From a virus (Duplodnaviria; Caudoviricetes): a stretch of 64,000 nt of DNA. Every line of letters starts with the position of its first letter. Positions within the stretch are counted from its first letter, which is position 1. Shown here piece by piece: positions 43,648 through 64,000 of this stretch. The notes beneath the pieces were generated by a model, which searched no databases, had not been told where the DNA came from, and saw only the letters and a program-made list of their open reading frames with translations. Made by a program: the position numbers and the translations under genes. Where the stretch lies: IMG/VR virus record IMGVR_UViG_3300026549_000037, positions 105,638 through 169,637 of that record, one strand, 5' to 3'.

Positions 43648-43884
43648 TTGACAAACTCAAGAAGATGTGTTATATTATCATCAATGGGAGGCAGAGATGT
43701 GTCCTCTACCTTCCGTCAACTCATTCGTTAGTTGCGGTGCTTGATGATGAACACCTGAACTATGCTGCTAACATAGTCAACGAAAATGATTCGCTACATA
43801 TTTTCACTTCCTTTCCAAATAAAGTGACTACGAATGAGTAGTCTATAAACAGAGAGACAGTTGAATGAAACTGTCTCTCTTTTT
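43648..43884 (+). ncRNA. Cassette 1 antisense RNA unit (promoter to terminator)
   Basis: TTGACA 43648 / TATATT 43671; 5' hairpin; terminator 43851-43884. Confidence 0.75.
43728..43799 (-). CDS. Cassette 1 micro-peptide with TAG at codon 2: M*RIIFVDYVSSIVQVFIIKHRN
   Basis: GAAAGGAAG RBS; homologous to cassettes 3 and 4. Confidence 0.7.
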
Positions 43885-44470
43885 ACTTAAGGAACATCTT
43901 ACCATTCTCAGTGGTAATAGTATTCTTGTAAATCACATCTTTATAACAGAAGATGTAATTATCCAGAGTTTCATTACGCTGAAAACAATCAGGTTTAGTC
44001 ATACGACCGATACCAGACTTATCTCCCTCGTAAACTGTGATGAAATAGAAAGAAGGTTCTCTCACCAGATTATTTCCAAGAGAAGCAGAGAAAGAAAAAT
44101 CACGAATATATGTCTGAATTTCTTTTACTGTTTCTTTATCAGCAATAACATTAAGAACGTTAGAGCAGATAACAATATAAGGGTCATAATAGAGCCCCGA
44201 AGACAAAGCAATATTGTTTTCTTCAACAGGCTTCCAGAACGGGTCATATCCTCTGAAGATAAAACCCTTAGTAGCAAGGAACTGCTCAATATGGTCAGTA
44301 TAGCGACCACAGCCGAAATCAAGGACAATGGGGGTTCGGTCAAATTTGGTAATCTTTGCCCAATGCTCACGAAGAGCATCCCAATCTAAACGATTGTAGA
44401 TAGCAGGAAGCTTCTTGGAGTTGATGGAAGTGTTCTTAGAAGTGATGTCGGACTGAACAGTGCAATACAT
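43883..44470 (-). CDS. Class I SAM-dependent methyltransferase
   Basis: VLDFGCGR; YDPF; CSNVLNVI. Confidence 0.8.
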   Translation of the reverse strand: MYCTVQSDITSKNTSINSKKLPAIYNRLDWDALREHWAKITKFDRTPIVLDFGCGRYTDHIEQFLATKGFIFRGYDPFWKPVEENNIALSSGLYYDPYIVICSNVLNVIADKETVKEIQTYIRDFSFSASLGNNLVREPSFYFITVYEGDKSGIGRMTKPDCFQRNETLDNYIFCYKDVIYKNTITTENGKMFLK

Positions 44471-44501
44471 TGTAATACCTCCTTAAATTAAATGATTTTG
44501 T

Positions 44502-44819
44502 TCAAGAGCGAATCTGTGCTGCGATTTTGTCAACGACAAGACGATATTTGTTTGTCATTTTAGGGGACTTATAATTACGTCCTCTACGATAAACATTGAG
44601 GATGTCATATGTATCATCATCAACAAAGGGAGAAGTGAACTGGATAAGAACAGAAGCGAAATCAATCGGTTTTGTAGGAGCATCGGTTCGCCATTCAATG
44701 ATATACTTTCCACAACTGATAACAGGACGGAAGATTTTAAATTCACGTCCAGACTCATCATGAAGAGTCTTGAGATAGAAATAATTTCCATAAGTTGTGT
44801 TGTATTTAGACTTAGCCAT
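44502..44819 (-). CDS. hypothetical protein
   Basis: AGGAGG RBS. Confidence 0.65.
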   Translation of the reverse strand: MAKSKYNTTYGNYFYLKTLHDESGREFKIFRPVISCGKYIIEWRTDAPTKPIDFASVLIQFTSPFVDDDTYDILNVYRRGRNYKSPKMTNKYRLVVDKIAAQIRS

Positions 44820-44855
44820 TGTTACATCCTCCTTAAAAATATTTTTGAAAAACAC

Positions 44856-45116
44856 TTGACAAATAGAAAAAGATATGTTATAATATCTTTATGAAAAGGT
44901 TGGAAGTTCAATCCCGCCTAAGCTTATTTAAAGCTTAAAGTAGCCTAAATAACTTATACCAATCATTTTAAATTAAATGAAAGATTGATTTAGGAACCAT
45001 TTTAAATGGATTGAAATCTACATTTTATCACCTCAATTCTATTCCGATGAACATAAGATAGCTATACGGGTAGCGAGTAAGAGAGACAGAAGTGTGAGTT
45101 CTGTCTCTCATTTTTT
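44856..45116 (+). ncRNA. Cassette 2 antisense RNA unit
   Basis: TTGACA 44856 / TATAAT 44879; gcta-tacggg-tagc hairpin; terminator 45081-45116. Confidence 0.7.
44973..45023 (-). CDS. Cassette 2 micro-peptide with TAG at codon 2: M*ISIHLKWFLNQSFI
   Basis: GAGGTGA RBS; same position in cassette; divergent sequence. Confidence 0.5.
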
Positions 45117-45385
45117 CAATCAAGGGTTACATAATACCAACCAGTGCAATAATCTTCTTCATTGTTGCGCTTATCTTCTTCGGGGTCGTAATACCCTGTT
45201 ACGGGTGTCACTTCTTCGTTTTGAGACCTATAAAGTTGTGTTAAAAGGTCGGAAATGGTTTCAGCAATTTCTTCAGACTTACAAAGAATTTCATAGCCAT
45301 TAGACCAAATTTCCCCGTCTGGAAAGTCTCTTAGTCTTTCAAGAAATTCTGAAATCCATTCTTTTTTCTCTTCTTTATTAAACAT
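45116..45385 (-). CDS. hypothetical protein (TGYYDP.ED motif)
   Basis: GGGAGG RBS. Confidence 0.7.
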   Translation of the reverse strand: MFNKEEKKEWISEFLERLRDFPDGEIWSNGYEILCKSEEIAETISDLLTQLYRSQNEEVTPVTGYYDPEEDKRNNEEDYCTGWYYVTLD

Positions 45386-45406
45386 AGTAACCTCCCTTAA
45401 ACAAAC

Positions 45407-45688
45407 CTAAACATCAATGATAACAGATTCCTCAATAATGAGGAAATTCCCAGCAAGATGCATATTATAATGGGTATAAGTTGCGCCAGCAATGGATTCA
45501 ACGGGAATTGGGTCGCTGACGTAACCCAAATTACTCAGATACTCTTGCTTTGACTTGTAATCTTCAAGGGCAGCATCAGCTTCAAACCGCTCATCTTTAT
45601 TGTCAAAAGTGTAGATGTGAAGCTGTGCCTTTTCTATATTGTCGTTATCAGGAATCCATGCATAACCAGTGGACATATACTTTCTCAT
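45407..45688 (-). CDS. hypothetical protein (TAG stop, in frame with next gene)
   Basis: AGGAGG RBS. Confidence 0.65.
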   Translation of the reverse strand: MRKYMSTGYAWIPDNDNIEKAQLHIYTFDNKDERFEADAALEDYKSKQEYLSNLGYVSDPIPVESIAGATYTHYNMHLAGNFLIIEESVIIDV

Positions 45689-45709
45689 TTTTATTCCTCC
45701 TTAAGATTC

Positions 45710-46306
45710 TTAAAATAAGGTTTTGACCTCAAGTTTATTACAGTGACATTTACCACAGCGATAACGCTCAGGATGTTCAATAAGCTTGCACATTCTTGTC
45801 CTTGTAGCAACTATCCTGTTACAATTAGGACAATAAACCTGATATTTTGCCCCTCCAAGTTGAGCCGCAGTTTCCTGAGCATACCATGCAGGAGCATCTT
45901 CAGGATTTACACACCGAGTTACTTTAAACTCTGTGAAATTGGAAACATAATTAGCTTTGGATTTCCATTCGCCAGTATGTTTCATGCCGTTTTTGGTAGC
46001 ATGAAGAACCTCATGGAGAATTACTTCATGAACACCTCTGGGAAGGGCTGCTTCGAAATACCGATGAGAGAACGTGAGAACATATTTGTAATCACTGTCT
46101 TTGTAACAAAGACCCAGAGATTTAGGTCTGGGCTTTTCATTCCAACCAACGCGGAACTGGACATTCTGCATTTTCTTTTCATGCCCCCACATATAATCCA
46201 GCCAAACACAGATTTCATTCACCTCCTTTCTAATATCATCGAGAGTATAGTTTGCTGTGTCAGTGCGGGAAAAAGACTTAGGAATCAGAGAATAGATGTC
46301 AGCCAT
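45710..46306 (-). CDS. SprT-like Zn metalloprotease with Zn ribbon
   Basis: HEVLH..H...WK; CPNC...CGKC. Confidence 0.85.
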   Translation of the reverse strand: MADIYSLIPKSFSRTDTANYTLDDIRKEVNEICVWLDYMWGHEKKMQNVQFRVGWNEKPRPKSLGLCYKDSDYKYVLTFSHRYFEAALPRGVHEVILHEVLHATKNGMKHTGEWKSKANYVSNFTEFKVTRCVNPEDAPAWYAQETAAQLGGAKYQVYCPNCNRIVATRTRMCKLIEHPERYRCGKCHCNKLEVKTLF

Positions 46307-46341
46307 AATGTCAAACCTCCTTGAATTTAAATTGTTATGAT

Positions 46342-46893
46342 TTAATTGTGGTCACGAACATCTGCGAAATGGTCAATGATAGCGTTTGTGTCTTTTTGGA
46401 TTCTGTTGGTAGTCTTTTCAATTTCTTTGAGCAGGTTGAAACGAAGATTGGTGTAGATATTGTATTCTTCCCAACGAGTGATAAAACCAGCAGGAGAAAT
46501 ACCCAAAGCTCCAAAACAAGAAGTGGAAATAAATGGAACATTTAAACTATAATTTTCATTGAAATAAGGCCCCTGAACATACATACGACAGTCTTTATTA
46601 ATGGAAACATTAACTTGGCATCCCGTGTCATCCTCAATATAAGTAGCGCGAATCACAGAGATTTTAGCTTCTTTCATAGCTTCAACCAAAGGCTTAAGCT
46701 GTTCACAAATTGCGTTCCACTTAGCCTCACCAATTGCGTTGATTTTGGGAGTGTAGAAGCTATCAGTGGTTTCGTAGTTGTTTTTGGTTTCACTAAGTTT
46801 CTTGAGAGCCATAGCGAGTTCCAAATCTTCCTGCATATCATACTCGACAGTAACCTTGATGTTGTTGATGGTGTTTGTGTTCTTGATTTCCAT
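46342..46893 (-). CDS. hypothetical protein (paralog of 56634)
   Basis: FY.P.I.AIG.AKW..IC.QL...W..YNIY. Confidence 0.75.
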   Translation of the reverse strand: MEIKNTNTINNIKVTVEYDMQEDLELAMALKKLSETKNNYETTDSFYTPKINAIGEAKWNAICEQLKPLVEAMKEAKISVIRATYIEDDTGCQVNVSINKDCRMYVQGPYFNENYSLNVPFISTSCFGALGISPAGFITRWEEYNIYTNLRFNLLKEIEKTTNRIQKDTNAIIDHFADVRDHN

Positions 46894-46963
46894 AGTTGTT
46901 CTCCTTTAAATAAATTTATTTTGTGTTAAGATAGTAGAAAAGGGGTAGTTATCTACCCCTTAT

Positions 46964-47380
46964 TTACTGGACTTCAATGGTATAGAAATCTTCGTCACAG
47001 TGGAAACATTGATAAGTGTAATCTTCAACAGTAGAAGGATAAAGATTCCGTCCACACTTGGGGCATTTCTTTACGGGGTCACATTCCTCACCTCCATTCT
47101 CAAGGAACTCCTTTTCATCATCGGTGATGATTTCATTTTCATTAAGAGCAAAGAGAAGTCCGTCATAAGTTTCACAGATTTCCTTCTGAAACTCAGGAAC
47201 AGCCCCAATCTTACGCTTAATCATTTTCACCTCACTTCCATCCACAACAACGCAAGGAGTTTCGTCTCCAAAAACATTGTGCTCAAGGAGACAATAAACC
47301 TTATCATTGATGCGTTTAAAATCAATGATGCTCCACAGACCAGAATGACCAACAGTTTTGTAAGTATTGTCCTTAACCAT
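46964..47380 (-). CDS. hypothetical protein (GH.G.W..ID...LLEH..GDE domain plus Zn ribbon)
   Basis: AGGAG RBS; CPKCG...CFHC. Confidence 0.65.
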   Translation of the reverse strand: MVKDNTYKTVGHSGLWSIIDFKRINDKVYCLLEHNVFGDETPCVVVDGSEVKMIKRKIGAVPEFQKEICETYDGLLFALNENEIITDDEKEFLENGGEECDPVKKCPKCGRNLYPSTVEDYTYQCFHCDEDFYTIEVQ

Positions 47381-47427
47381 TTTTAAATCCTCCTTAAATT
47401 TGTTATTGTTTATGGTTAATGGTTTGG

Positions 47428-47643
47428 TTAAACCCGAGAATAGGTATCCCAATTCACATTGTAAAGATAAGAATCCATCATAATGAGAAAGAGTTTACGC
47501 TGATTAGATTCTCCCCAAACTCGCCGCATACCAGTGATATTGGGATGAGGCCCTGCATTGGGAAAAGATTCGATATGAGACTTAAGAAAAGGGGAAATGC
47601 TGGACTGCTTGGCATACTTGACGGGATAGACTTTGTTTTTCAT
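47428..47643 (-). CDS. hypothetical protein
   Basis: AGGAGG RBS. Confidence 0.65.
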   Translation of the reverse strand: MKNKVYPVKYAKQSSISPFLKSHIESFPNAGPHPNITGMRRVWGESNQRKLFLIMMDSYLYNVNWDTYSRV

Positions 47644-47680
47644 TTTGTGAAACCTCCTTAAAAATCTTTCTTAGAATTCT

Positions 47681-48289
47681 TTAAATTAACAGGATAAATA
47701 GGTCTTCAAAGTAATAGCCTTCCCGAGAAATCATTTCACAAGCTTTAAGCTCATTTTCTGAAAGGCAGTCTTTATTGAAGAGTGAATTTGCAGTAGCAAG
47801 ACCTGCGATATAACAAAGAGCAAGTTTAGAGAAAAATTCAAATTCATAAACTTTGAAGGTAACTCTTCCTTCTTCAACAAGCTGATTGAAAGTGTCAGCC
47901 CCCATACAAACAGCGGTAGGCATATTAGGACAACTATAATCAGGAACACAAATGTCCTTCCAAGAATTGATAGGCTCATCGAAGCTGTCTGTATAAAAAG
48001 TAACCTCAAGAACACAGGTTGTATCAAAAGGATGAGGTAAACAAGCATTCTGAATCTGAGCTGCTTCATTACAACGTTCAATACAATACTGAATCGCTGT
48101 TTCATTATCATCATCATAAATACATTCAGATTCTTTCATGAGAGAGGCATCATAAAAGAAAATAGAATCTCCATCGGCACACGTCCAAGGGTGAACAATC
48201 TTATTGTTTCCATGCTCAAGACCATATTCACCATGTGTGATTGGCTCGATAGCAGACTTGATGCAACCATGATAAAGAGTGTAAGACAT
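47681..48289 (-). CDS. hypothetical protein
   Basis: AGGAGG RBS; LYHG N-terminus. Confidence 0.7.
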   Translation of the reverse strand: MSYTLYHGCIKSAIEPITHGEYGLEHGNNKIVHPWTCADGDSIFFYDASLMKESECIYDDDNETAIQYCIERCNEAAQIQNACLPHPFDTTCVLEVTFYTDSFDEPINSWKDICVPDYSCPNMPTAVCMGADTFNQLVEEGRVTFKVYEFEFFSKLALCYIAGLATANSLFNKDCLSENELKACEMISREGYYFEDLFILLI

Positions 48290-48333
48290 AATACTAACCT
48301 CCTGAATTTTTTTAAAATTTTGTGAAATAATGC

Positions 48334-48586
48334 TTGACAAACAGATTGGAATATGTTATACTGTCCACAGTAAGAGAAGTTGACCCACATCTTCCCTTAC
48401 TGTGCGTAATTAAAGTGGTGTATTAATTACGGTGCTTCATAATGAAGACACAAACAATATTGTCGGTGTAATCGACGTAGATGATTTTCTACATACAATC
48501 GTCTCCTTTCAAATAAGATGATATGTAAACAGAGTTGTGGGACTCTGGAAACATTAGAGAGTGGTTTTACTGCTCTCTTTTGTTTT
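48334..48586 (+). ncRNA. Cassette 3 antisense RNA unit
   Basis: TTGACA 48334 / TATACT 48357; loops CCCACA x UGUGGG; terminator 48556-48586. Confidence 0.8.
48423..48494 (-). CDS. Cassette 3 micro-peptide with TAG at codon 2: M*KIIYVDYTDNIVCVFIMKHRN
   Basis: GAAAGGAGA RBS; homologous to cassettes 1 and 4. Confidence 0.7.
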
Positions 48587-49064
48587 AGTCACGAGGGTCA
48601 AAAGCAACGTCAATCCAAAGACTGTTTCCTGCCTCGGAGTCATAATAAAGTTCAGCATTTTCAACAAATAGCTCATCGGAAAGGTCATTCCAATCCAAAG
48701 AGCCGACTGCAACAGAGAGACAGGTATGTCCACCTCCAATTATCCATTTACCCTTAGATGTATTGTAGATTGCAATTTTGGTATCTTTGGAGAGGATTCG
48801 AATAAAATCCTTAATGGAAACATAGTGGTCAGGGTTTACAGTCTTATTTTCCTCCCCGTTTAAATAATTGCAAGCCGCCTTGAAATCTTCAAGGAAATAG
48901 TGACCCTGAGCCCAATAATGACGCTGATAATCAATTCCCCATGCCACAGTATAACGGGGATGACCATCATCAGTCCAATTGCACAGGAGAGTGCGGTCAA
49001 GTTCTTTGTTCTCCGCAACGATTTCGTAAGTGATGCCATTGTCATTCTTAAACTCTCTAACCAT
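48585..49064 (-). CDS. hypothetical protein (W.QGHYF motif)
   Basis: GGAGG RBS. Confidence 0.7.
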   Translation of the reverse strand: MVREFKNDNGITYEIVAENKELDRTLLCNWTDDGHPRYTVAWGIDYQRHYWAQGHYFLEDFKAACNYLNGEENKTVNPDHYVSIKDFIRILSKDTKIAIYNTSKGKWIIGGGHTCLSVAVGSLDWNDLSDELFVENAELYYDSEAGNSLWIDVAFDPRD

Positions 49065-49108
49065 TTTAAATACCTCCAAATATTTTTTAATAAATTTCGA
49101 AAAAAGAC

Positions 49109-49376
49109 TTGACAAATGTGTAAAGATATGCTATAATTAAGTCACAATCTAAAAGAGACCTGCAACCTCAGATAGATTGTGACTTGTATAAGAAATCAAC
49201 TCGCATTAATTTCTATGTTTAACTATTAATACCTAACAGGTATTATAAGTATAATCAATGTGTATGATTTTACTCATGTGAAATCACCTCTTTTCTCCCT
49301 CTATAGGGAAAGTTAAGCTTTGCAGGAGCTTAATAAAAAGGACGAGTAGCTGCTAACTACCCGTCCTTTTATTTTT
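49109..49376 (+). ncRNA. Cassette 4 antisense RNA unit
   Basis: TTGACA 49109 / TATAAT 49132; loops CCUGCAA x UUGCAGG; bidirectional terminator 49333-49376. Confidence 0.8.
49206..49277 (-). CDS. Cassette 4 micro-peptide with TAG at codon 15: MSKIIHIDYTYNTC*VLIVKHRN
   Basis: GAGGTGA RBS; the TAG aligns with CAG (Gln) of cassette 1. Confidence 0.7.
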
Positions 49377-49857
49377 ATCTGTTCTGCTTGCCAACAAAAG
49401 CAAGATTTTCTAACTTGATAGTCAGAACATCAGGCTTTTCATCAAGCTTGTTGAAATATGATGCCTGAATAAGACCAGTTGCCTGAAGGTCAGCTTTCTT
49501 GATTTCCTTACCGTCAAGGAAATACTTAACCTTAGACTTATTGGGAGTGCTGTGAGCAACAACATAGATGTTATGCTCACCAGCCTTGTTGGTGTGCTCA
49601 ATAAAACGGTCAGAACCAGAGAGATAAGTTCCCCAAGTCCTCTGCTGAGGAACATAGCCCTGTTCCATCTTTGCCTTGATGGAAGCCTTGTTTGTACGAT
49701 TGATGCCGAAGCGGACAGTTGCAAGGGTCTTCTTGTAGGCAACGTGACCAGCCCTCTTTGCTGCGGCAGTTAACGGAAGGTCAGTAGTCCATCCGATATT
49801 GGTGAAAGTCCCCTTGTGGATAGCGTTGATGATGGTCATAGCTTCGTTCTTGTTCAT
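49375..49857 (-). CDS. hypothetical basic protein
   Basis: AGGAG RBS; strongly biased codon usage. Confidence 0.75.
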   Translation of the reverse strand: MNKNEAMTIINAIHKGTFTNIGWTTDLPLTAAAKRAGHVAYKKTLATVRFGINRTNKASIKAKMEQGYVPQQRTWGTYLSGSDRFIEHTNKAGEHNIYVVAHSTPNKSKVKYFLDGKEIKKADLQATGLIQASYFNKLDEKPDVLTIKLENLAFVGKQNR

Positions 49858-49908
49858 GATTTTGTTCTCCTTTAAATTAAAATAGATTTTTATTCAGAAA
49901 CCCAGATT

Positions 49909-51102
49909 TCACTCTGGGCTGTCTGTTTTATTGTAAACATCAAAAGCATATTCTTGCTGGTATTTTTGTTCAGCTTCTTTTCTTGCTTGTACAGCTTCTT
50001 CAAAAGATGGGAAAAATTTATTTAAAACTTTTTTCTTTTTTACTGTTAAATTGGCTAACCACCTCTTTTTCCCACGCGGATTATAAGAAACACCTTTTAC
50101 TCCTGTTGTATTTCTTGAATTGGCATGGGAGTTCATACTATTTTGATAAGGTTCAACCACTCTTAAATTGTTTTTGCGATTATCTCTTATAAGATTGCCA
50201 GTTTTAGGATGCCTTTTATGGTCTACAATCCTTTTATCATCAAAATCCAATCCCATAATAAAACGATGCAAAAACAACTTTCGAGCTTTTCGATGTCCAA
50301 TACTAAAATTAGCAAACACATAACCTTTATTACTAAATGTCCAATAATATTCGCTAATTTTTTCGTAATCTTCTTTGTCGATTAGGAAATATTCTCCGTT
50401 TTTGTCATAAACCGTATAATAATCCCCGTCATCACTTAATTCATAAACATTGTGTTCTCTTCTTTCTTTTCCTGCGTCTATTAAGGCACAGCCACATGAT
50501 TTAACACTTCCGTTTTTTAAGTTATCCGAAGATACTGAAACTAATAAAGGATTACCACAATCACATTTGCAAAACCATCTTGGTTTGGCGCGATTACCTC
50601 TATTATAATCAGGAAAAAGAACAGTAAGTTTATTAAATTTTTGTCCCAGTAAATTTTCTCTCGTGCTTCTATTATCCTCTGCTTGGCACCCACAAGAAGT
50701 GGTATGCCCTGTGGTTAAATTGCTTTGATTAATAGAATATGGAATAACATTACCGCATTCACATTCGCAAAACCAATAGCGTATATTATTATGTTCTGAT
50801 TCCTCCCTTTCTAAATCTTCTTTTATTACAATTAGTCTTCCAAATTTACAGCCTGTTAAGTCTATTCTTTTTTCAAATGCTTTCTCCTTTTTTAAACATC
50901 CACAAGACCTAACAGGATGTTTTCCTGTTAAATTGTGGCGTTCAACTGAAATTATAGTATGTTTTTCACAAGAACATTCGCAGAGCCAGTAACTTCCTTT
51001 GGGTTTTCCTTCAGATTGTCTTTGTTTTTCTTTTTCTAAATCTTCTTTTATAACAGTTAATTTTCCGAAAACCTTTCCTGTATAATCTATCTTTTTACTC
51101 AT
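49909..51102 (-). CDS. HNH homing endonuclease with N-terminal Cys-rich repeats and C-terminal AP2 domain
   Basis: three (D)LTG.KFG.L.V..W.C.C.CG..SCGC repeats; LHRFIM..VDH..DNRKNNLR; NTTGVKGV..W.A..EEAVQARK. Confidence 0.85.
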   Translation of the reverse strand: MSKKIDYTGKVFGKLTVIKEDLEKEKQRQSEGKPKGSYWLCECSCEKHTIISVERHNLTGKHPVRSCGCLKKEKAFEKRIDLTGCKFGRLIVIKEDLEREESEHNNIRYWFCECECGNVIPYSINQSNLTTGHTTSCGCQAEDNRSTRENLLGQKFNKLTVLFPDYNRGNRAKPRWFCKCDCGNPLLVSVSSDNLKNGSVKSCGCALIDAGKERREHNVYELSDDGDYYTVYDKNGEYFLIDKEDYEKISEYYWTFSNKGYVFANFSIGHRKARKLFLHRFIMGLDFDDKRIVDHKRHPKTGNLIRDNRKNNLRVVEPYQNSMNSHANSRNTTGVKGVSYNPRGKKRWLANLTVKKKKVLNKFFPSFEEAVQARKEAEQKYQQEYAFDVYNKTDSPE

Positions 51103-51131
51103 AAATCCTCGACTTTCTTTATTGGAGAGGC

Positions 51132-52136: not shown

Positions 52137-52189
52137 AATATTTCCTTTCTGCGTTTAAGCTCGCCAGCTTTTTTGTTTTTGTTGAGATA

Positions 52190-52218
52190 ATTATATCACA
52201 AAAGTTTGGATTTGTCAA
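52190..52218 (-). promoter_or_regulatory. sigma-A promoter
   Basis: TTGACA-17-TATAAT on the - strand. Confidence 0.85.
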
Positions 52219-52268
52219 GGACTTTAGATTAAATAATCTAAAGTTTTTGAAGGTGAAGGGTGGAAGAT

Positions 52269-52802: not shown

Positions 52803-52832
52803 GTTCGTACCTCCATAATTTTATTTGAGTTT

Positions 52833-54887: not shown

Positions 54888-54966
54888 AATCAAATCTCCT
54901 TTAATATTTTATAGATTATAGGTTGATAGGGACTTTATATAAAGGGGAGGTTTCCCTCCCCAGATA

Positions 54967-55698: not shown

Positions 55699-55783
55699 AA
55701 TAAATACTTCCTTTCTTAAATACATCTGTTTAAAACCTTATAAAGATTTAAACTACTTTCTTATGATTGAGATGAGAGGGGAA

Positions 55784-56278
55784 TTACTTCCCCTCATCCT
55801 CATAATCATCTTCATAATCAAGGTCAGTCTCAGCTTCAGCGTTGAGCTCATGAATCTTAGCAAGAGCACGAAGCTTCAGAATCTCCCGAATGGCTTCCTT
55901 GGGGATATTGTCTCCCATGTCAGAAGCATCAGCTAATTCCTTACCAGCCATGTCGTAAATCTTCTTGGACTGGTAAGAAATCACACAGTCTTCATCTTCG
56001 ATTCTCACCTGTTCGTCGGGCTGGATGTTGTTCTCGTTCATGGAAGCTTCAAAGTTCACCTGAGACATGACTTCCATGACAAGAGCCATTCCCTTCTTGT
56101 CGCTATTATTAACAATACGCTGAATAACAGCAAGACCAGCTTCACGGTCTGCCTCAGATACAGAGCCCATTGCGCCAACCTTGATTTCGTCGATATAAAG
56201 GAATTCGAGGTTGCTGTTGTTTTCCTTCATGAGCTGGACGCGATTCAGGGACTTCTTGTTGTTGTTGATGTTAGCCAT
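55784..56278 (-). CDS. hypothetical acidic protein
   Basis: RBS preceded by pseudoknot copy E. Confidence 0.7.
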   Translation of the reverse strand: MANINNNKKSLNRVQLMKENNSNLEFLYIDEIKVGAMGSVSEADREAGLAVIQRIVNNSDKKGMALVMEVMSQVNFEASMNENNIQPDEQVRIEDEDCVISYQSKKIYDMAGKELADASDMGDNIPKEAIREILKLRALAKIHELNAEAETDLDYEDDYEDEGK

Positions 56279-56350
56279 AATAGATTCCTTTCCGTTTTAA
56301 CGTCTTGAACGTGACGTAAATTTATTGAACCTTAATAATAAATGTTGTTA

Positions 56351-56569
56351 TTAGCATTCAGTCTTCTTAATGGACATAAAGTTTCCAAGCTCTTTTAGTG
56401 CAGTGAAAAGTTCACCAGCCAAAACGTCATTAAGCTGAAACTCAAGTTTTTGTCCATGAAAGTTAGTAACAGAGAAATTGTAAAAACCATTTTCTTTGTT
56501 GAGACTAATAGCTGTGGCAGACCTATCATCATTAGCACTGATATTATAAGTTTTGTTAATAGTTAGCAT
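56351..56569 (-). CDS. hypothetical protein
   Basis: ORF in operon. Confidence 0.55.
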   Translation of the reverse strand: MLTINKTYNISANDDRSATAISLNKENGFYNFSVTNFHGQKLEFQLNDVLAGELFTALKELGNFMSIKKTEC

Positions 56570-56633
56570 TTGATTCTTCTCACTTTCTTTTTTGTTGTGA
56601 TTGTGGATATTTTGATATAGAAAAAGATGGAAA

Positions 56634-57200
56634 TTATTTCCCAGCAATCTCATCATAATTTTCCCGAATAGAACGAATTCGAGTTTCATCAGCTTTGATT
56701 CTGCGCTCGATTTCTCTCATAAGAGCGGAACGGAAAAGATTATAAATGTTATAATCGTCCCACTTAACGAGCCAGCCATCTTTATCTTCACCCAAAGCAG
56801 TAGAGTAATATTCCTCACTGGGATTCAAGGTATAGTTAAAAGAAGTACGCCCTACAGTTGAGTATTTAAGGACATAAACTTTACCATAAGGATTATAACT
56901 AATACACATAAAACAACGTTCGCCAGTATCGTCTCTATTAAAAGAAGCCTGTAAAAAATTGCTAATTATATCTTTTACACCAATGTTTTCAACCGTCTTA
57001 CACAATTCAAGAAGCTGATTGCAGATTTCAGCCCATTTAGCAGCACCAATAGCCTTAATGCGAGGAAGATAAAATTCCTCAGTACGCTCACGAGTAGCTT
57101 TGATGTCGTTCATCTTTTGAATGAGCTCCATCATTTCGGTGTCCTCGTTCTCCTTGCAAGTAACGGTAACGGTCATGTTCTCATAAGTCTTAGTAGTCAT
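56634..57200 (-). CDS. hypothetical protein (paralog of 46342)
   Basis: FYLPRIKAIGAAKWAEICNQL. Confidence 0.75.
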   Translation of the reverse strand: MTTKTYENMTVTVTCKENEDTEMMELIQKMNDIKATRERTEEFYLPRIKAIGAAKWAEICNQLLELCKTVENIGVKDIISNFLQASFNRDDTGERCFMCISYNPYGKVYVLKYSTVGRTSFNYTLNPSEEYYSTALGEDKDGWLVKWDDYNIYNLFRSALMREIERRIKADETRIRSIRENYDEIAGK

Positions 57201-57250
57201 ATTTTGCTCCTTTTCTCCCCGTATAGCCGATAGGACAGCTTATAGTACTT

Positions 57251-57475
57251 TTATTTTATTAAATAATTTTTTGCATAATCGGTGTCGTTGCAGCTTTCAT
57301 CTTCTGTATTATAGCTACGCACACCATCAATATCAAATGCATATTCTATTTGATATCTTAAATCACCTACTGTCCCCTCTGCTTCTCGCAACAATTCAGC
57401 AAGATATAAAATATCTTGTTCTTCTCCTTGTATTATAAGATTATGCTCTTTAAATCGGTAGATTTTAGTTTCCAT
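57251..57475 (-). CDS. hypothetical protein
   Basis: AGGAGG RBS. Confidence 0.65.
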   Translation of the reverse strand: METKIYRFKEHNLIIQGEEQDILYLAELLREAEGTVGDLRYQIEYAFDIDGVRSYNTEDESCNDTDYAKNYLIK

Positions 57476-57495
57476 TTATTTTTTACCTCCTTTAT

Positions 57496-57732
57496 TTAAT
57501 GGCAGAAATGCTTGCAGAGTTCCTTACAGATAACGTGAGAGTATTCATTTCTCCCATCAAATCTGTAATCATCAGAACCACAAGTAGCAATCCACTTAAG
57601 ACACAAACGAGTGAATTCCTCTTGCAGATACCGATGTTCATGAGTCATGAGTTCACAGAACTCTTTGTTATCGTGGCTGAAATTATTAACAAAATCAGTC
57701 ATTGTGGAAACAGCTTCTTTAGCGGTAGGCAT
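57496..57732 (-). CDS. hypothetical protein (HRYLQ..DGRNE)
   Basis: AGGAG RBS. Confidence 0.7.
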   Translation of the reverse strand: MPTAKEAVSTMTDFVNNFSHDNKEFCELMTHEHRYLQEEFTRLCLKWIATCGSDDYRFDGRNEYSHVICKELCKHFCH

Positions 57733-57768
57733 AGTTTTATTCTCCTTTCTTAAATCAAGCACTCAAAA

Positions 57769-58074
57769 TTAGATTTCAACTTCGATGATTTTACAATCCC
57801 AATTGTCGTGATTAAAAGTTTCTGCCCAAGCACAACTCTCATTGAGATTGTTTTCATCGTCCAAAATATCCTCTTTGATAAGGACATCCATAACCTTGTC
57901 TAAATCATCATTGGAATTGATTTCGAATTCGTAATCGTAACTGTTTTCATCCACATATTTACAGGCTTCAAAAAACTTTTCAAGCATACGAATTTGTGCT
58001 TTAAGCATGGTATCAAAGAACTCAGGTTCCCCAATTTCACGCTCACAGCAATCAATAACCATGTACTTCTTCAT
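57769..58074 (-). CDS. hypothetical protein
   Basis: RBS. Confidence 0.65.
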   Translation of the reverse strand: MKKYMVIDCCEREIGEPEFFDTMLKAQIRMLEKFFEACKYVDENSYDYEFEINSNDDLDKVMDVLIKEDILDDENNLNESCAWAETFNHDNWDCKIIEVEI

Positions 58075-58114
58075 AATTTTTTCATTTCCTTTCTTAAATC
58101 ACAATTATTGTTTG

Positions 58115-58303
58115 TTAATCATCAAAATCGCAATTTTCTTCATCGAGGTTGGCATCTCCAACCCATTCAACCTGACGCATTGGAATTAAATCCAAATGCT
58201 TAGAAGCATATTTGATAGCTTCATCAATGGTCATGTCATCAGGGACTTGAATGGAGGAATTATACACTCCAATGCAGTTTACGGTTACATTCAGGGTTTT
58301 CAT
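58115..58303 (-). CDS. hypothetical protein
   Basis: RBS. Confidence 0.65.
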   Translation of the reverse strand: MKTLNVTVNCIGVYNSSIQVPDDMTIDEAIKYASKHLDLIPMRQVEWVGDANLDEENCDFDD

Positions 58304-58346
58304 AATTTTACTTCCTTTCTTAAATCATAAAGGTTGTTATTAGTAT

Positions 58347-58691
58347 TCAGTAATTTATTTCCTCCTTTCTCACATAAATATGATACCAATCTGCTCCCAA
58401 CCAAAAATCCCACTCTCCAAGAATGGTATCTTCAGGTTCAGTGCAAGAAACTTCTGTCAAAATTCCTTTTTCATTAGGAACAAACATCACACCTTCACAC
58501 CAAGAAGGGGCTTCGTCTGAACCACAAAGTTTGAAGTCAACTACAACTCCATTTTCAAATTTTACTGTAAGAAGATAAGAAGACTCTTTTTCTCCTAACC
58601 AATATCTACGATTTTCTTCATCATCCAAACAAGCGGCTTCTACATACCTTGCAATGGACGAAGAAATGTTAATAGTTTTCTCAAATTTCAT
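58347..58691 (-). CDS. hypothetical protein (paralog of the N-terminal half of 59021)
   Basis: LTV.F..G...D...CGS..APSWCE.V..ILG.W. Confidence 0.75.
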   Translation of the reverse strand: MKFEKTINISSSIARYVEAACLDDEENRRYWLGEKESSYLLTVKFENGVVVDFKLCGSDEAPSWCEGVMFVPNEKGILTEVSCTEPEDTILGEWDFWLGADWYHIYVRKEEINY

Positions 58692-58765
58692 TTTTTATTC
58701 CTCCTCCTTAACGTCAGTGGCTTCAAAGTCATCCGACCAAGAAATATCTTCTTTTCAAAAAAGTC

Positions 58766-59040
58766 TTGACAAATGCACTTTTATGTGTTACAATACCTAC
58801 AGAGTCAAGAGACCCGTAATCTCTTAACTCTGTAGGATATTGTTTTAGGCTTCCTTATAGCTCAAGGAAACCAGTTAAAACGATTACATAATAGTAAACG
58901 TTAAAACGGTAGTTGATAGATTTAATTTTCTACATGGCTTTCATCTCCTTTCTGCCTTAGACAAGGGTTTCATATATTTGAACAGCTTACGGGGCTGGAA
59001 TTTTAGATGGGAACAGGATTTTACTCCTGTTCCTTTTCTT
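58766..59040 (+). ncRNA. Cassette 5 antisense RNA unit
   Basis: TTGACA 58766 / TACAAT 58789; loops CCCGUAA x UUACGGG; terminator 59009-59040. Confidence 0.8.
58855..58935 (-). CDS. Cassette 5 micro-peptide with TAG at codon 2: M*KIKSINYRFNVYYYVIVLTGFLEL
   Basis: GAAAGGAGA RBS; homologous to cassette 6. Confidence 0.7.
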
Positions 59041-59851
59041 TCTCTTCAAAGGGCTTAAGAGGAACACGATTTCGAGTAGTGTATTTTCCTTCGTCATCCA
59101 TCAGAAAATCGTTTTCACAGGAATCACAGAAGAATTTGGTTTCATTCCTGAAATTGTCAACTTCCTCAACCCAATAGTTCCCACAGTAAGGACAGCGAGG
59201 CTCAATATACTGTCCGAATTTAATATCCTCCTGATATTCCTCAGAACGAAGTTCAGACCAAACCTTGACAGAAAATTCCTTAGGATTATCAGGATTGAGC
59301 TCAGCCATGCAAATATCCTGTTCGACTGTCTGTCCATCACGGACAAACGTAATAAACGCTCCATGATACCCTTCTTCCATTTCAGGATAAATCCTGAACT
59401 GACCATTAGGCGTGTCGATAGATGCGTAAGGGACGCTGTTCTTAGTCGCAGAATGCATCATCATCTCATTGAACACTTTATTGTTTTTGTTGATAGGCAT
59501 TTCTGTTTCCTCCTCAATTTTGACATTGACAATATATTCATTCTTAGTATCAGGGGCAACCATTTCCCAATGACCGAGGATAGAATCATAAACTGCTCCA
59601 GAACAGTTTATTTCATGTAAACCTCCGTTTTCATCAGGAGTCCAAAGAACAGACTCACACCAAGAGGGAGCATCCTGAGAACCACAGCAACGAATATCCA
59701 TTACCGTTCCATCAGAAAATCTAACGGTAAGGGTGAATGGAGTTTTATTTTCTGAGAACCAATCTTCGGGATAGCTTAAAGAACACGCCTTATTAATTTT
59801 GGCGGCAATATCCTTGCTGATAAAGATGTCTTTTTCATAAAAATGCTTCAT
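59021..59851 (-). CDS. hypothetical multi-domain protein with C-terminal Zn ribbon
   Basis: AGGAGG RBS; internal GAGGAGG..ATG near 59500; CPYC..CDSC. Confidence 0.7.
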   Translation of the reverse strand: MKHFYEKDIFISKDIAAKINKACSLSYPEDWFSENKTPFTLTVRFSDGTVMDIRCCGSQDAPSWCESVLWTPDENGGLHEINCSGAVYDSILGHWEMVAPDTKNEYIVNVKIEEETEMPINKNNKVFNEMMMHSATKNSVPYASIDTPNGQFRIYPEMEEGYHGAFITFVRDGQTVEQDICMAELNPDNPKEFSVKVWSELRSEEYQEDIKFGQYIEPRCPYCGNYWVEEVDNFRNETKFFCDSCENDFLMDDEGKYTTRNRVPLKPFEEKEKEQE

Positions 59852-59898
59852 TTTACTTATCCTCCTTAAAGTTATTTTTTATTTTTTGGTTTTTGGTT

Positions 59899-60096
59899 TT
59901 AATACATATAATACTCATCGTCATGATGAAGATATTTCTCAGTCAAATCCTTTAAAGGTTGACTGATTTTTGCGGGTTTCTCTTTAAGGCGTGAATCCTT
60001 AAAGGCTCGATTTGTGTAGTATCGGAACTTGCCATGTCCCTTTACCATTTTATTATGTTTTTGAGCTTGTAGGATTTCATGTTCGTTCATGCCCAT
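59899..60096 (-). CDS. hypothetical protein
   Basis: AGGAGGTG RBS. Confidence 0.6.
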   Translation of the reverse strand: MGMNEHEILQAQKHNKMVKGHGKFRYYTNRAFKDSRLKEKPAKISQPLKDLTEKYLHHDDEYYMY

Positions 60097-60125
60097 ATTA
60101 TTTCACCTCCTTTTGCTGTAATTTA

Positions 60126-60380
60126 TTAGTTCTTCTTAAGGCGAGGGGTAATGGCAACACCATTTTCGGTGCTAACAACGATATACTCAACTCCATTATC
60201 TTTGTCCGTAAGAATATTAGCAGAAATAGTGGCTTTCTCCGCAACGGTCTTTTCAACAAACGGAGACCAACAAAAGCTGGAATATCCCGCTGAAACAGAG
60301 CTAATAAACAAGGTGATAAGAACGATAATGCAAATGATAAAGGTGACGATGTTCTTCTTCATAGTGTTCATGGTTTTCAT
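60126..60380 (-). CDS. membrane-anchored DUF6440-like protein
   Basis: TM then ILTDKDNGVEYI...GVAITPR. Confidence 0.65.
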   Translation of the reverse strand: MKTMNTMKKNIVTFIICIIVLITLFISSVSAGYSSFCWSPFVEKTVAEKATISANILTDKDNGVEYIVVSTENGVAITPRLKKN

Positions 60381-60434
60381 TTTTCTTTTTCCTTTCCTTT
60401 TCTTTTTATCCTATTTAATTTCAATTACTGATTA

Positions 60435-61274
60435 TTAACAGTCTCCAATTGCTACGGCATAATAGAAATCATACATCTTTTGACGTGAGTTAACATCTAA
60501 CTCATCCCAAGATTCAACTTCCTCGCCTGATGCACTCATGTCTTCTTCATACCACTTCCTTGCTGTATATTCTGGGAATCCTGCTTTTGTAATAATGTGT
60601 TCTGATTCTACACCTTCTTCCTTTGTGCTTGTAGTAATTGAGGAGATTTGATATGGTTGATACGGAATGTTAATGTAATCATTATATAAACTGCCATATC
60701 CATATCTACCATACCCATATCCACCATAACCCCCATATCTATAACCGTAATTTGCCATATGGTATGTTTCTTTTAAGTGGGGCTTATTTAAGAATGTCGC
60801 AATACTTTCGACTTGTTCATTGCATTCAATAGCAGATTTACAGTATTTATTGCGAACAGTTCTTATTGGGTCATCATAGCCCATCTTACCTAAGACACAA
60901 GCGGCAATATATCCTGTTCTACCATGTCCGCCAAGACAGAAGATTGCAACTTTCTTTGTCTTAATACGAGAAATAATGTCCGTCACACAACGCTTAAGAA
61001 TAGATTGAGGTAAAACCCCATAATCTTCAATGGGATAATATAGAACTTCGCCGCAAAAACCTGTATTCCAAATCTCCCCACCAAGTTCTGCTAAAGGAAC
61101 AAGAACATCAATTTTCTTTTCTTTTACGAGGTCTTTCACTTGACGCTCTTTGCAAAGATAAAGATTTGGAATGATTTCTGTAGGCTTGTGACAGGCAGTG
61201 GAAGCCCAAATGTTTTTGGCTTCTAAGACATTGTTTGTCTTGTTTTTATTTTTCTTTTTGTTGCGCTTACTCAT
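60435..61274 (-). CDS. Protein-tyrosine/dual-specificity phosphatase
   Basis: PIEDY; FCLGGHGRTG (CX5R); AIE...Q. Confidence 0.88.
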   Translation of the reverse strand: MSKRNKKKNKNKTNNVLEAKNIWASTACHKPTEIIPNLYLCKERQVKDLVKEKKIDVLVPLAELGGEIWNTGFCGEVLYYPIEDYGVLPQSILKRCVTDIISRIKTKKVAIFCLGGHGRTGYIAACVLGKMGYDDPIRTVRNKYCKSAIECNEQVESIATFLNKPHLKETYHMANYGYRYGGYGGYGYGRYGYGSLYNDYINIPYQPYQISSITTSTKEEGVESEHIITKAGFPEYTARKWYEEDMSASGEEVESWDELDVNSRQKMYDFYYAVAIGDC

Positions 61275-62268
61275 TAGAACTTAACCCCCTTCTATCAAAA
61301 CGACTTTTATCATTTTTTCTCCTTCTCCGTTTTCTGTTTTCTTTATCTTCGTCTTCAAAGTCTTCTGGATGAACCTCTCTATAATATCCATCCTTTTTAT
61401 CTATATCAGACGGATAGATTCTGCTTGTTCCCCATTTAACGGGAATATAGTTCATAATGTTGTCGGTAGTTTCTTCTTTCTGCTCTGAAACAGCGCTATA
61501 ATAGCCACCATAACACTCAGAAAGTAGATAAATATTTTCTTTGTCTGTTAAGGGAGAAATTATGCCGAGATTTAAAGCTCTTTTGTAAAAGGCTTTAATC
61601 TCATAAGTACAATTGTCTTGGCAAACATCCCATACTGCAAATGGTGGTTGATTTTTCTTGAATTCAAGAAAATTCAGCACAGCCGTATTTGAAGAACCCA
61701 AGAAAAATATCCTATTTCTCTTGTTGTAGAAAATACCGTTATTGTGGCTCAAATCAACCATATGGTCGATAAAAACCGAATCGGGAACTTTCTTATATAA
61801 TAAAGCACCATCTGCAATGGCTTGCCATGCATAGCCGCCATAAGCACAGTTCCAATCCTTATTATAACTAAAAAGCTTGGAACAGGTAATCAAAGCATTT
61901 GTTGGCTCAAGATGCGGACAGTTCCATAAACTGTTTCGTTCATTTAATGCGGGTGTGAGATAACGAATTTCATAATTGCACTTTTCGGGCGCGTGACGTG
62001 CTTCACCCAAGCAAAGTGCAACGGCATAGTCATAAAACATTACTGCAAATTGAGCATCGAATTTGGTTTTAAATTCTTCAAATTCTTCAACCCACTTATC
62101 ATGTCCATGATTAAATGGAATCGGTTTGGCCATGACACTTAAAGCTTCGAGGGCATAAAACTCTCTGATACCTTGATACACAGGAACGATAATGTTGCTG
62201 GGACAAATTTCTCCATCGCCCCAATTTGGGAATCTTTTAGGATTTTGTTTGAATAAATCATCGTACAT
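61267..62268 (-). CDS. hypothetical protein (GEARH, YGG.AW, DH.VDL.HNNG motifs)
   Basis: 333-aa ORF, AGGAGG RBS. Confidence 0.7.
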   Translation of the reverse strand: MYDDLFKQNPKRFPNWGDGEICPSNIIVPVYQGIREFYALEALSVMAKPIPFNHGHDKWVEEFEEFKTKFDAQFAVMFYDYAVALCLGEARHAPEKCNYEIRYLTPALNERNSLWNCPHLEPTNALITCSKLFSYNKDWNCAYGGYAWQAIADGALLYKKVPDSVFIDHMVDLSHNNGIFYNKRNRIFFLGSSNTAVLNFLEFKKNQPPFAVWDVCQDNCTYEIKAFYKRALNLGIISPLTDKENIYLLSECYGGYYSAVSEQKEETTDNIMNYIPVKWGTSRIYPSDIDKKDGYYREVHPEDFEDEDKENRKRRRRKNDKSRFDRRGLSSNE

Positions 62269-62324
62269 TTTACTTAGCCTCCTTTAAAATAAAGTTGAAA
62301 TATTTATTTAAAAATGTAAAGAGT

Positions 62325-62636
62325 TTAATAATGGTATCTGCCCCCTTGGGGATTATCCTCCTTCCTCTTGTAATTAAACACCTTGCTAATATTGTAAGCC
62401 CAAATATTATTCAGGCTTGCATCAACACAAGGTTGCACATGAATTGGAAAATGAATTGAAGCGCAATACTCTTCAATCCTTTTGAGTTGGAATTTTCGGA
62501 ACACTGTGATGGTTTCACCCTTGAGCAGAGCTCTGATGTCAGCTTGTTCAAGAGTGTCAATCAGCAGGTTTAGTTTGTTGTTGCTATCTATGTTATTGAT
62601 AGCTTCATTTAGGTAACGTTCCTGCATCGTAAGCAT
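62325..62636 (-). CDS. hypothetical protein
   Basis: AGGAGG RBS. Confidence 0.6.
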   Translation of the reverse strand: MLTMQERYLNEAINNIDSNNKLNLLIDTLEQADIRALLKGETITVFRKFQLKRIEEYCASIHFPIHVQPCVDASLNNIWAYNISKVFNYKRKEDNPQGGRYHY

Positions 62637-62637
62637 T

Positions 62638-63093
62638 TTACTTAGCCTCCTTTTCACGATTTACAGCAGCTTTTCTTAATTCATCCTGAGAATCATAATA
62701 CTGCTCAAAGGCATCACAGCCTTCCCAAGAGATTTCAGATTGAAGCTTTACAAGCTTTTCCGTGGCTTCTGCCAACGCTCTCTGAGCCTCTTCGAGAGCA
62801 GACTTCTGTAATGCAATATAGGAATCCATTGCAATATTCTTTGCCATAAGAATGGCGGTGAATTCATCTTTGAAAAACCCTTCATAGTGCTGAGGCATAA
62901 TATGAGTTTTCATTTCATTGAAAGTGCTCATACTGATAAACCGTTCTCTCAATTCGTGTGATGCCAGAAAATATACAGGATTTTCATTGGTATTTTGAAT
63001 ATTCTGAATTTTATACACACACAGAACATTCATTGTAGTAGGTTGACGATATGTTAAGATATATTCATATCCGTCCAAAGTAATATTTTTCAT
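62638..63093 (-). CDS. hypothetical protein
   Basis: AGGAGG RBS. Confidence 0.65.
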   Translation of the reverse strand: MKNITLDGYEYILTYRQPTTMNVLCVYKIQNIQNTNENPVYFLASHELRERFISMSTFNEMKTHIMPQHYEGFFKDEFTAILMAKNIAMDSYIALQKSALEEAQRALAEATEKLVKLQSEISWEGCDAFEQYYDSQDELRKAAVNREKEAK

Positions 63094-63118
63094 TTGCTTT
63101 TATCCTCCTAAATTTTAA

Positions 63119-63328
63119 TTAGAAATAATACTTAAAGTAACAGTCGATGGGTTTGACTGTCACTTTAGCCGATGAGCTCAAACCCATCTTGGTTGTTTTG
63201 ACAACATATCCAAAACGGGCATAAGCGTCCTTCTCACTTCTGGCTACCACGTCGCCCTCGTATAGCTTGGATTGTCCTCCAAGCTGTGCAACGTAGGCTT
63301 TGACGTGGTATTTACTACGTAATTTCAT
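63119..63328 (-). CDS. hypothetical protein
   Basis: AGGAGGTG RBS. Confidence 0.6.
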   Translation of the reverse strand: MKLRSKYHVKAYVAQLGGQSKLYEGDVVARSEKDAYARFGYVVKTTKMGLSSSAKVTVKPIDCYFKYYF

Positions 63329-63342
63329 TAATTCACCTCCTT

Positions 63343-63663
63343 TTATTCTGCGGTAATGACCCACTCTTCGCCATTACCATCAACAATATGAACAACTTCA
63401 TCGTTGATAGTAACAGATTCGAGATTGCTCATCCATGCTTCCACAATCTCTACATGAGAAGCCATAGCTGACTCTTCAGCGTCAGACAATCCTGTTTCAT
63501 ATCCTACTTGGAAAGACCCTGTAAGGTCTTCACGACTATAAAGAGTATCATCTTTAATCTGATAGGATTTCTCTCCCATGTCCCATCCAAGATAGAACAT
63601 AAAGATAGAGCAGATAGCGGCGATGAGCGCTGCGACCAAAATAATGTTTTCCTTAATTTTCAT
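63343..63663 (-). CDS. membrane-anchored protein
   Basis: GGAGG RBS; N-terminal TM. Confidence 0.65.
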   Translation of the reverse strand: MKIKENIILVAALIAAICSIFMFYLGWDMGEKSYQIKDDTLYSREDLTGSFQVGYETGLSDAEESAMASHVEIVEAWMSNLESVTINDEVVHIVDGNGEEWVITAE

Positions 63664-63697
63664 TTTTCTATTCCTCCAAATATTTTATAAATTTTAC

Positions 63698-64000
63698 TTG
63701 ACAAACGCTAAATACTATGGTATAATTCTCTCAAGAAGTGAGGAATCCCGTATTATTTTCTCACTCCTTGAGGCTATTGGTTGATACTATCAGAACTTTA
63801 AGTTGCGACCTTAAAGCTCAATTACGCCACCAACATAAATGGCGTAGACTACAATGCTGAATCTGTAATCAACCTACTTTGTGAGTGTCATATATGATTC
63901 ACTTCCTTTCTTCCTCTAACTGAGGGATTGTCCATCTATACGGGCTGGACTTATAGGAAAAGATTGAACGACTCGTTGTGGGAGTCGTTCTTTCTTTTTT
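63698..64000 (+). ncRNA. Cassette 6 antisense RNA unit
   Basis: TTGACA 63698 / TATAAT 63721; loops CCCGUAU x AUACGGG; terminator 63966-64000. Confidence 0.8.
63811..63891 (-). CDS. Cassette 6 micro-peptide with TAG at codon 6: MTLTK*VDYRFSIVVYAIYVGGVIEL
   Basis: GAAAGGAAG RBS; homologous to cassette 5. Confidence 0.7.

Follow-up and report, generated by a model that had tools for sequence, protein, structure and literature searches.

The final 64 kb of the 169.6-kb phage record IMGVR_UViG_3300026549_000037 (IMG/VR; these 64 kb are hereafter the window) carry six dispersed intergenic cassettes. In each of them a predicted antisense RNA on the + strand covers a very short open reading frame (ORF; here, micro-ORF) of the − strand that contains an in-frame TAG codon. 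Our best reading is that the cassettes join two principles already known, the control of a micro-ORF by a cis-antisense RNA and the use of stop-codon recoding as a gate. We put at about even the chance that the cassette is a double-locked micro-gene, closed both by an amber codon and by an antisense RNA, in a layout resembling type I toxin–antitoxin loci with a genetic-code gate added. A further step, to which we give slightly less than an even chance, is that the double lock, with its ORF clasped by co-varying kissing hairpins, times the release of a family of ∼25-residue peptides to the onset of TAG-as-glutamine reading, these peptides being effectors or read-outs of the code switch.

Antisense units and the micro-ORFs beneath them

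The record has an estimated completeness of 78%; complete relatives measure 215–219 kb and the phage itself is roughly 215 kb long. Transcription is rightward nearly genome-wide, with ∼45 near-consensus TTGACA-17-TGnTAnnnT promoters, and the leftward gene arm comprises the last ∼22 kb only (window 42–64 kb). Inside this arm six sigma-A-type promoters lie on the + strand, at 43648, 44856, 48334, 49109, 58766 and 63698, each with TTGACA, a 17-nt spacer, an extended TG and TAnnnT. The promoter pattern is far from accidental in frequency: 26 matches were observed in the window against 3.6 expected, while comparable leftward promoters number two only (at 52218 and 52861). Downstream of each of the six rightward promoters lie a stable 5′ hairpin (−12 to −18 kcal/mol) and a pyrimidine tract, together with one or two small hairpins and a rightward terminator made of a hairpin and a T-run (−15 to −19 kcal/mol). 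Such a strong 5′ hairpin is a cassette-specific feature; most promoters of the + arm lead straight into a ribosome-binding site.

These elements agree with the original prediction, made by inspection of the DNA, which had placed six such promoters at these positions, each followed by a 5′ hairpin, a small 3′ hairpin and an intrinsic terminator, and had estimated an RNA of ∼200–270 nt with no useful ORF. The predicted + strand RNAs are 204–270 nt long, and the three that were folded have z-scores of −4.8 to −7.1 relative to shuffled sequences. The pyrimidine tract, which had been proposed to act against the Shine–Dalgarno (SD) sequence, is present, although it is simply the complement of the micro-ORF SD. 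The ORFs found on the + strand within the RNAs were rejected as coding, being mirror frames of the peptide genes without an SD of their own. Every antisense unit exactly fills its intergenic gap. In cassette 1 the fit is close enough that the T-run of the terminator extends over the upstream gene's stop codon and the promoter directly borders the SD of the next gene downstream. At the level of sequence, then, each + strand unit has the form of an antisense RNA that is equipped with a promoter and a terminator of its own and fully overlaps a micro-ORF.

Beneath each unit lies one SD-led ORF on the − strand, of 16–26 codons in the window and 16–27 codons in the family as a whole, as had been described. 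The SD is of the GGAG type, stands 5–10 nt upstream and is strong in every copy. Stop codons are almost always TAA, and the last codons fall in a predicted helix. Peptides 1, 3 and 4 are homologous to one another and peptides 5 and 6 are related, in line with the grouping first suggested, and the KHRN end of the former is indeed written with different synonymous codons. Selection at the protein level, which had been surmised from those codons, is borne out by frame-specific comparison. The ratio of nonsynonymous to synonymous differences (pN/pS) in the annotated frame, codons after the TAG included, is 0.35 for the 23-codon KHRN class and 0.55 for the 26-codon EL class, against 1.0–1.05 when the frame is shifted either way, and third positions hold a disproportionate share of the differences. 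The ortholog of micro-ORF 4 in relative G002 carries a 3-nt deletion that is in frame. The micro-ORF frame is under purifying selection.

Common to all classes of peptide is an N-terminal motif (one basic and two aliphatic residues, any residue, V or I, D or N, and Y), which lies 14–18 residues from the stop depending on class. The C-termini are conserved within classes and differ between them: one type of end is basic (KHRN), another acidic (E-L) and a third apolar and rich in G-G. The beta-branched and aromatic residues I, V, Y and F are abundant throughout. Five of them, searched against Pfam, gave no match at E ≤ 10.

A second layer of organization concerns the hairpins that flank the micro-ORF. 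Over 6–8 nt (up to 9 nt with variants) the loops of the 5′ hairpin and of the small 3′ hairpin are complementary to each other, as compared with ∼3–4 nt for shuffled loops. This pairing is kept between paralogues through two-sided changes, of which there are seven distinct co-varying variants; in cassettes of the cassette 1 type the 3′ loop pairs instead with 9–10 nt just after the 5′ hairpin. With the loop partners on either side of the micro-ORF, the RNA of either strand is predicted to be able to clasp the region of the SD and ORF. Structural statements here are founded on single-sequence folds and explicit loop comparisons. A global MAFFT alignment of 30 cassettes, in which paralogues were misaligned, yielded no consensus structure with RNAalifold, and Rfam gave no match at gathering scores and only chance-level ones at E ≤ 1.

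Two degenerate-codon pattern scans of IMG/VR place the family in at least 15 contigs after filtering. True members occur only in contigs of 108–221 kb belonging to this clade, most of them with an antisense promoter, and the number of cassettes per genome ranges from 6 to 9 or more. In one contig (L019) they form a dense array, 500–1400 nt apart. A genome-wide scan of the 169.6-kb record found family members in the six cassettes only. Between close relatives the cassettes are 90–98% identical and the flanking genes 79–92%, so that cassettes are conserved equally or somewhat better. Promoter hexamers are invariant between orthologs, with variable spacers, and terminator stems show compensatory substitutions.

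TAG codons in the micro-ORFs and the recoded genome

Of particular interest is the TAG codon. All six micro-ORFs of the window contain one in frame: four have it at codon 2, and the other two at codon 15 (micro-ORF 4) and codon 6 (micro-ORF 6). A scan of seven related genomes, which called for a promoter followed by a small SD–ATG ORF on the opposite strand and did not require TAG, yielded 42 family ORFs, 41 of which have at least one TAG (at codon 2, 5, 6, 10, 12 or 15). The position of the TAG moves even between orthologs: the counterpart of cassette 3 in relative G003 reads AAG at codon 2 and carries its TAG at codon 10. In micro-ORF 4 the TAG is kept in all four orthologs.

This enrichment is peculiar to the micro-ORFs. 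TAG accounts for 28 of their 653 codons and for 80% of their glutamine (Gln) codons; in two giant late ORFs the corresponding figures are 25 of 3929 codons and 9%. Among the 6301 codons of the arm's 35 long ORFs, which include 165 CAA or CAG codons, TAG never occurs internally, and a single one of these ORFs ends in TAG. By our arithmetic a 24-codon ORF would, at the late-gene rate, have a chance of ∼0.14 of holding a TAG. Its presence in nearly all micro-ORFs therefore points to selection for the TAG codon as such. The original prediction had treated this codon only as one to be mutated away before expression; the evidence instead makes the TAG gate central, as the most consistent feature of the module.

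That TAG is a sense codon in this phage is indicated from several directions. In the genome interval from 3.7 to 48 kb, giant ORFs emerge only when TAG is read through, among them one of 1738 codons with 13 TAGs and one of 2189 codons with 12. In orthologs from two relatives, 23 of the 53 non-TAG residues aligned with late-gene TAG sites are Gln (CAA 17, CAG 6); the next residue is Glu, with 6. Within the cassette family, too, TAG aligns with CAG or CAA in paralogues and orthologs. On these alignments the phage reads TAG as Gln, as in genetic code 15.

A candidate agent of this reading lies 3.1 kb before the window, in a cluster of transfer RNA (tRNA) genes that is full of sigma-A-type promoters. 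ARAGORN, run with introns allowed, detects at genome positions 102193–102504 (L007:10194–10505) a tRNA that has a long variable arm and whose anticodon loop, with anticodon CTA, is interrupted by a 222-nt intron. The group I intron match inside it falls below threshold (Rfam 26.6 bits against a gathering score of 50; E = 6e-5 in a small search). We regard this tRNA as a predicted CUA suppressor, presumably one that inserts Gln. Two other RNA matches, at L007:5069–5217 and L007:7693–7797, belong to this part of the genome: RAGATH-33 scores 119.4 bits, narrowly below its gathering score of 120.4, and a weak match to YrlA (Y RNA-like; 34.9 bits) lies within the tRNA cluster.

Individual cassettes and the leftward arm

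Five of the six cassettes of the window are intact members of one family. The antisense unit of cassette 1 (43648–43886, + strand) comprises a promoter (43648–43676), a predicted start at ∼43683, a 5′ hairpin (43684–43716), a small 3′ hairpin (43826–43843) and a terminator (43846–43885); it covers micro-ORF 1 (43728–43799, − strand; 23 codons, TAG at codon 2, KHRN class), with the SD upstream. Cassette 3 (48334–48588, +) has its promoter at 48334–48362, the 5′ hairpin at 48367–48403, the small 3′ hairpin at 48530–48547 and the terminator at 48548–48586, and covers micro-ORF 3 (48423–48494, −; 23 codons, TAG at codon 2, KHRN class). Cassette 4 (49109–49376, +) is built likewise (promoter 49109–49137, 5′ hairpin 49142–49182, small 3′ hairpin 49312–49334, terminator 49336–49370 followed by a T-run), with micro-ORF 4 at 49206–49277 (−; 23 codons, TAG at codon 15, KHRN class). 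Its terminator region (49336–49376) is bordered by T-runs on both strands, so that leftward transcription could be halted there too; the terminators of the other cassettes look unidirectional.

The two cassettes of the EL class lie further to the right. In cassette 5 (58766–59039, +) the promoter occupies 58766–58794, the 5′ hairpin 58799–58833, the small 3′ hairpin 58983–58997 and the terminator 59005–59039, opposite micro-ORF 5 (58855–58935, −; 26 codons, TAG at codon 2). In cassette 6 (63698–64000, +) the corresponding positions are 63698–63726, 63731–63771, 63930–63950 and 63956–64000, the terminator ending at the contig end; micro-ORF 6 spans 63811–63891 (−; 26 codons, TAG at codon 6).

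Cassette 2 (44856–45115, +) departs from the layout that had been attributed to all six. Its promoter (44856–44884), small 3′ hairpin (45061–45074) and terminator (45081–45109 and a T-run) are in place, and from ATG-TAG and SD through 3′ hairpin and terminator it matches the family, this part being near-identical to an intact cassette of relative G001. The 5′ part and the body of the ORF are unrelated sequence, and the loop–loop match is lost. Judged by these matches, cassette 2 is chimeric, with the break immediately behind ATG-TAG, and micro-ORF 2 (44973–45023, −; 16 codons), with a body non-homologous to the family, is probably degenerate. The ortholog in G002 has suffered a further deletion. 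The 5′ half of the cassette (44885–45015, +) is a different rightward element, in which a T-arm-like hairpin and a long hairpin accompany a separate consensus promoter. In G002 a related copy stands behind another promoter (L011:1480–1820), and the two may represent a second small-RNA family.

Orthologs elsewhere show other kinds of loss. The G001 counterpart of cassette 1 (L008:9866–10108) has TAA at codon 2, so that the peptide cannot be made; it keeps promoter, hairpins and terminator, the last with a compensatory change. The counterparts of cassette 5 in G002 (L012:2529–2808) and G003 (L013:19593–19876) lack the terminator, and a different upstream gene begins there. The terminator losses and the cassette 2 chimera together place synteny breakpoints inside cassettes.

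The arm that houses the cassettes encodes products of accessory type: GP88-like, SprT-like and PcfJ-like proteins, an HNH endonuclease, DUF932 and many unknowns. A strong sigma-A-type promoter on the − strand (52190–52218) is the likely source of the operon messenger RNA (mRNA) carrying micro-ORFs 1–4. The host probably belongs to the Bacillota, to judge from GGAGG-type ribosome-binding sites, extended −10 promoters and a G+C content of 32–39%. A blastn comparison of 7 kb of the arm with the GenBank phage collection gave no match. The sole long ORF of the arm with a terminal TAG (45407–45688, −) is followed in the same frame by the ORF at 45116–45385; late read-through at that TAG could fuse the two products. 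In the structural block, several genes share an A/T-rich motif immediately 5′ of the SD (genome 13.9, 25.8 and 27.4 kb), which could be a late promoter or a translational enhancer. The motif does not occur in the cassettes, which therefore give no late-promoter sign for the micro-ORFs.

Mechanism, alternatives and known systems

The arrangement suggests the following mechanism. Host sigma-A RNA polymerase would transcribe the leftward operon into an mRNA carrying a 23–26-codon ORF with its own SD. Ribosomes entering there would stop at the TAG until the CUA suppressor tRNA, after loss of its 222-nt intron, has TAG read as Gln. Meanwhile the near-consensus host-type promoter on the opposite strand would give rise to a 200–270 nt antisense RNA complementary to the SD, the start codon and the entire ORF, which would block ribosome binding and/or mark the duplex for ribonuclease III (RNase III). 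The two hairpins flanking the ORF would pair by their loops and so clasp the region. Only once suppression is established and the antisense supply falls would the peptide appear, as a late-released effector. Promoters of the TTGACA type are rare to nearly absent in the TAG-rich structural block and frequent elsewhere, and are therefore probably early or middle promoters; their scarcity in that block fits antisense RNAs made early by host polymerase, with a supply that falls late.

Several observations weigh against this interpretation. Typical type I toxin genes differ from the micro-ORFs, none of which, in the window, has a comparable − strand promoter directly upstream. The original prediction had taken the peptides to be hydrophobic, and this is not uniformly so. 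The KHRN class has a grand average of hydropathy (GRAVY) of −0.46 to 0.6 and only 7–8 consecutive apolar residues; a classic pore-forming toxin is doubtful for peptides that are barely hydrophobic and lack a segment of transmembrane length. Apolar stretches in the EL and GG classes reach 13–17 residues. On the − strand the 5′ hairpin and the middle of the cassette have the better fold, on the + strand the region of the 3′ hairpin, so that fold energies, like G·U counts, are mixed and do not tell which strand is selected. The retention of RNA elements in the TAA-bearing G001 copy hints at a role of the RNA beyond silencing the peptide. One family micro-ORF (L019:2767–2987, −; 24 codons), in the dense array, has no TAG at all. 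Finally, the suppressor tRNA stands among sigma-A-type promoters: suppression may start early, in which case the gate would amount to a short delay. What had been envisaged, an undescribed family of antisense-controlled micro-peptide modules, thus stands as regards conserved, multicopy, selected ORFs with a complete antisense unit within − strand operons; the hydrophobic transmembrane character of type I peptides appears not to extend to the KHRN class.

Could the micro-ORF act in cis? We consider it unlikely, although worth weighing, that it is a leader ORF that senses the code switch. Before suppression, ribosomes would halt at the TAG, in many copies at codon 2; read-through after suppression, as far as the conserved C-terminus, would remodel the hairpin clasp and thereby affect the downstream − strand gene in its translation, stability or termination, as leader peptides of the TnaC or ErmCL type do. 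A TAG that is kept while its position moves would suit such a sensor, as would the location of each cassette immediately ahead of a − strand gene belonging to its operon, the placing of the ORF between two hairpins with co-varying loops, the nearly invariable TAA stop with the last codons in a predicted helix, and the persistence of RNA elements in the copy with a dead ORF. An N-terminal motif shared across classes that differ in length and have unrelated C-termini, however, is a better fit for a released peptide than for an arrest motif set at a constant distance from the stop. The downstream start, moreover, is ∼100 nt away, with its own SD and outside the antisense RNA, and the strong antisense promoter and terminator are left unexplained by a leader.

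Less probable again is a module centred on RNA or DNA, in which the peptides are secondary: the head-on promoters, + RNAs and hairpins would punctuate the operons by way of transcriptional interference or RNase III processing sites, and the cassettes may also mediate gene shuffling. Cassette edges coincide with synteny breakpoints, as the chimeric cassette 2 illustrates, and the terminator of cassette 5 is lost in G002 and G003, just where the upstream gene differs. The variable number of cassettes per genome, the dense L019 array and the RNA elements retained beside a dead ORF also accord with such a module. It would, however, need neither purifying selection on the peptide frame, nor a TAG in 41 of 42 ORFs, nor a strong SD in every copy. 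Chance, or decaying remnants without current function, could account for cassette 2 and the degenerate G001 ortholog, yet is highly improbable given the excess of promoter matches, the upkeep of the family in at least 15 contigs and the joint presence of coding selection and covariation.

We return, then, to the double-locked micro-gene. To our knowledge, the regulatory principle of a double lock of amber codon and antisense RNA has not been described for any virus. If true, it would link type I-like RNA control with genetic-code switching, and would provide both a simple reporter for the onset of suppression in the infected cell and a new family of phage micro-proteins. Stop-codon recoding has been proposed as a timer for late genes of phages, and direct, compact test cases are scarce; the cassettes offer one, with tiny ORFs that lie in early-type operons opposite strong antisense promoters and that nearly all keep a TAG of drifting position. 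Should the peptides prove membrane-active or growth-inhibiting, these would be the first type I-like modules known within a lytic programme.

A limited literature search, full text included, found nothing equivalent to the cassettes. Closest in layout are the ibs/Sib type I toxin–antitoxin loci of E. coli, which Fozo and colleagues are said to have described in 2008. The likeness is considerable: multicopy intergenic modules in which an ORF of ∼20 codons lies fully under a cis-antisense RNA; this RNA is transcribed from a promoter of its own to a terminator of its own, and its sequence complements the SD and start codon. The cassettes have no sequence, Rfam or Pfam relation to these loci, and no Rfam RNA or Pfam peptide match was found to Fst/RNAII, TxpA/RatA or other type I families either, so that the novelty originally supposed is upheld in these databases. 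They lie in the arm of a phage of lytic type, inside operons and with no toxin promoter of their own, and their ORFs carry an obligatory TAG and encode peptides that are only partly hydrophobic.

Two other comparisons concern position and repetition. Leader peptides of the TnaC type resemble the micro-ORFs in having ∼24 codons, conserved residues and a place upstream of an operon gene, whereas the C-termini of the cassette peptides differ between classes, and the micro-ORFs are not followed by a − strand terminator. The promoter/stem-loop cassettes (PeSLs) of T4-type phages, reportedly the subject of work by Arbiol and colleagues in 2010, are likewise repeated units of an early promoter and a hairpin, set between accessory genes of a variable region and associated with gene shuffling. 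PeSLs point along the genes and encode no peptide; the cassettes are antisense, ∼250 nt long and contain a selected ORF.

The clasp has its nearest parallel in mRNAs of the hok/aapA1 type, where a long-range RNA–RNA contact encloses the ribosome-binding region of the toxin and the antisense RNA is a second layer of control. Long-range intramolecular locks are known from hok/sok, aapA1/IsoA1 and tisB-type toxin mRNAs (PMC5416894, PMC11228461). In the cassettes the contact is instead a predicted loop–loop (kissing) pairing of hairpins that flank the ORF, possible on either strand. As for the gate, in-frame TAGs of recoded gut phages have been proposed to delay particular genes until late (Borges et al., bioRxiv 10.1101/2021.08.26.457843; Peters et al., PMC9523058); the text of the former preprint mentions neither antisense nor cassettes of this kind. 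Our phage resembles these in reading TAG as Gln and in having a predicted suppressor tRNA. It differs in where the gate is set: on micro-ORFs within otherwise TAG-free operons driven by host-type promoters, and in combination with antisense RNAs.

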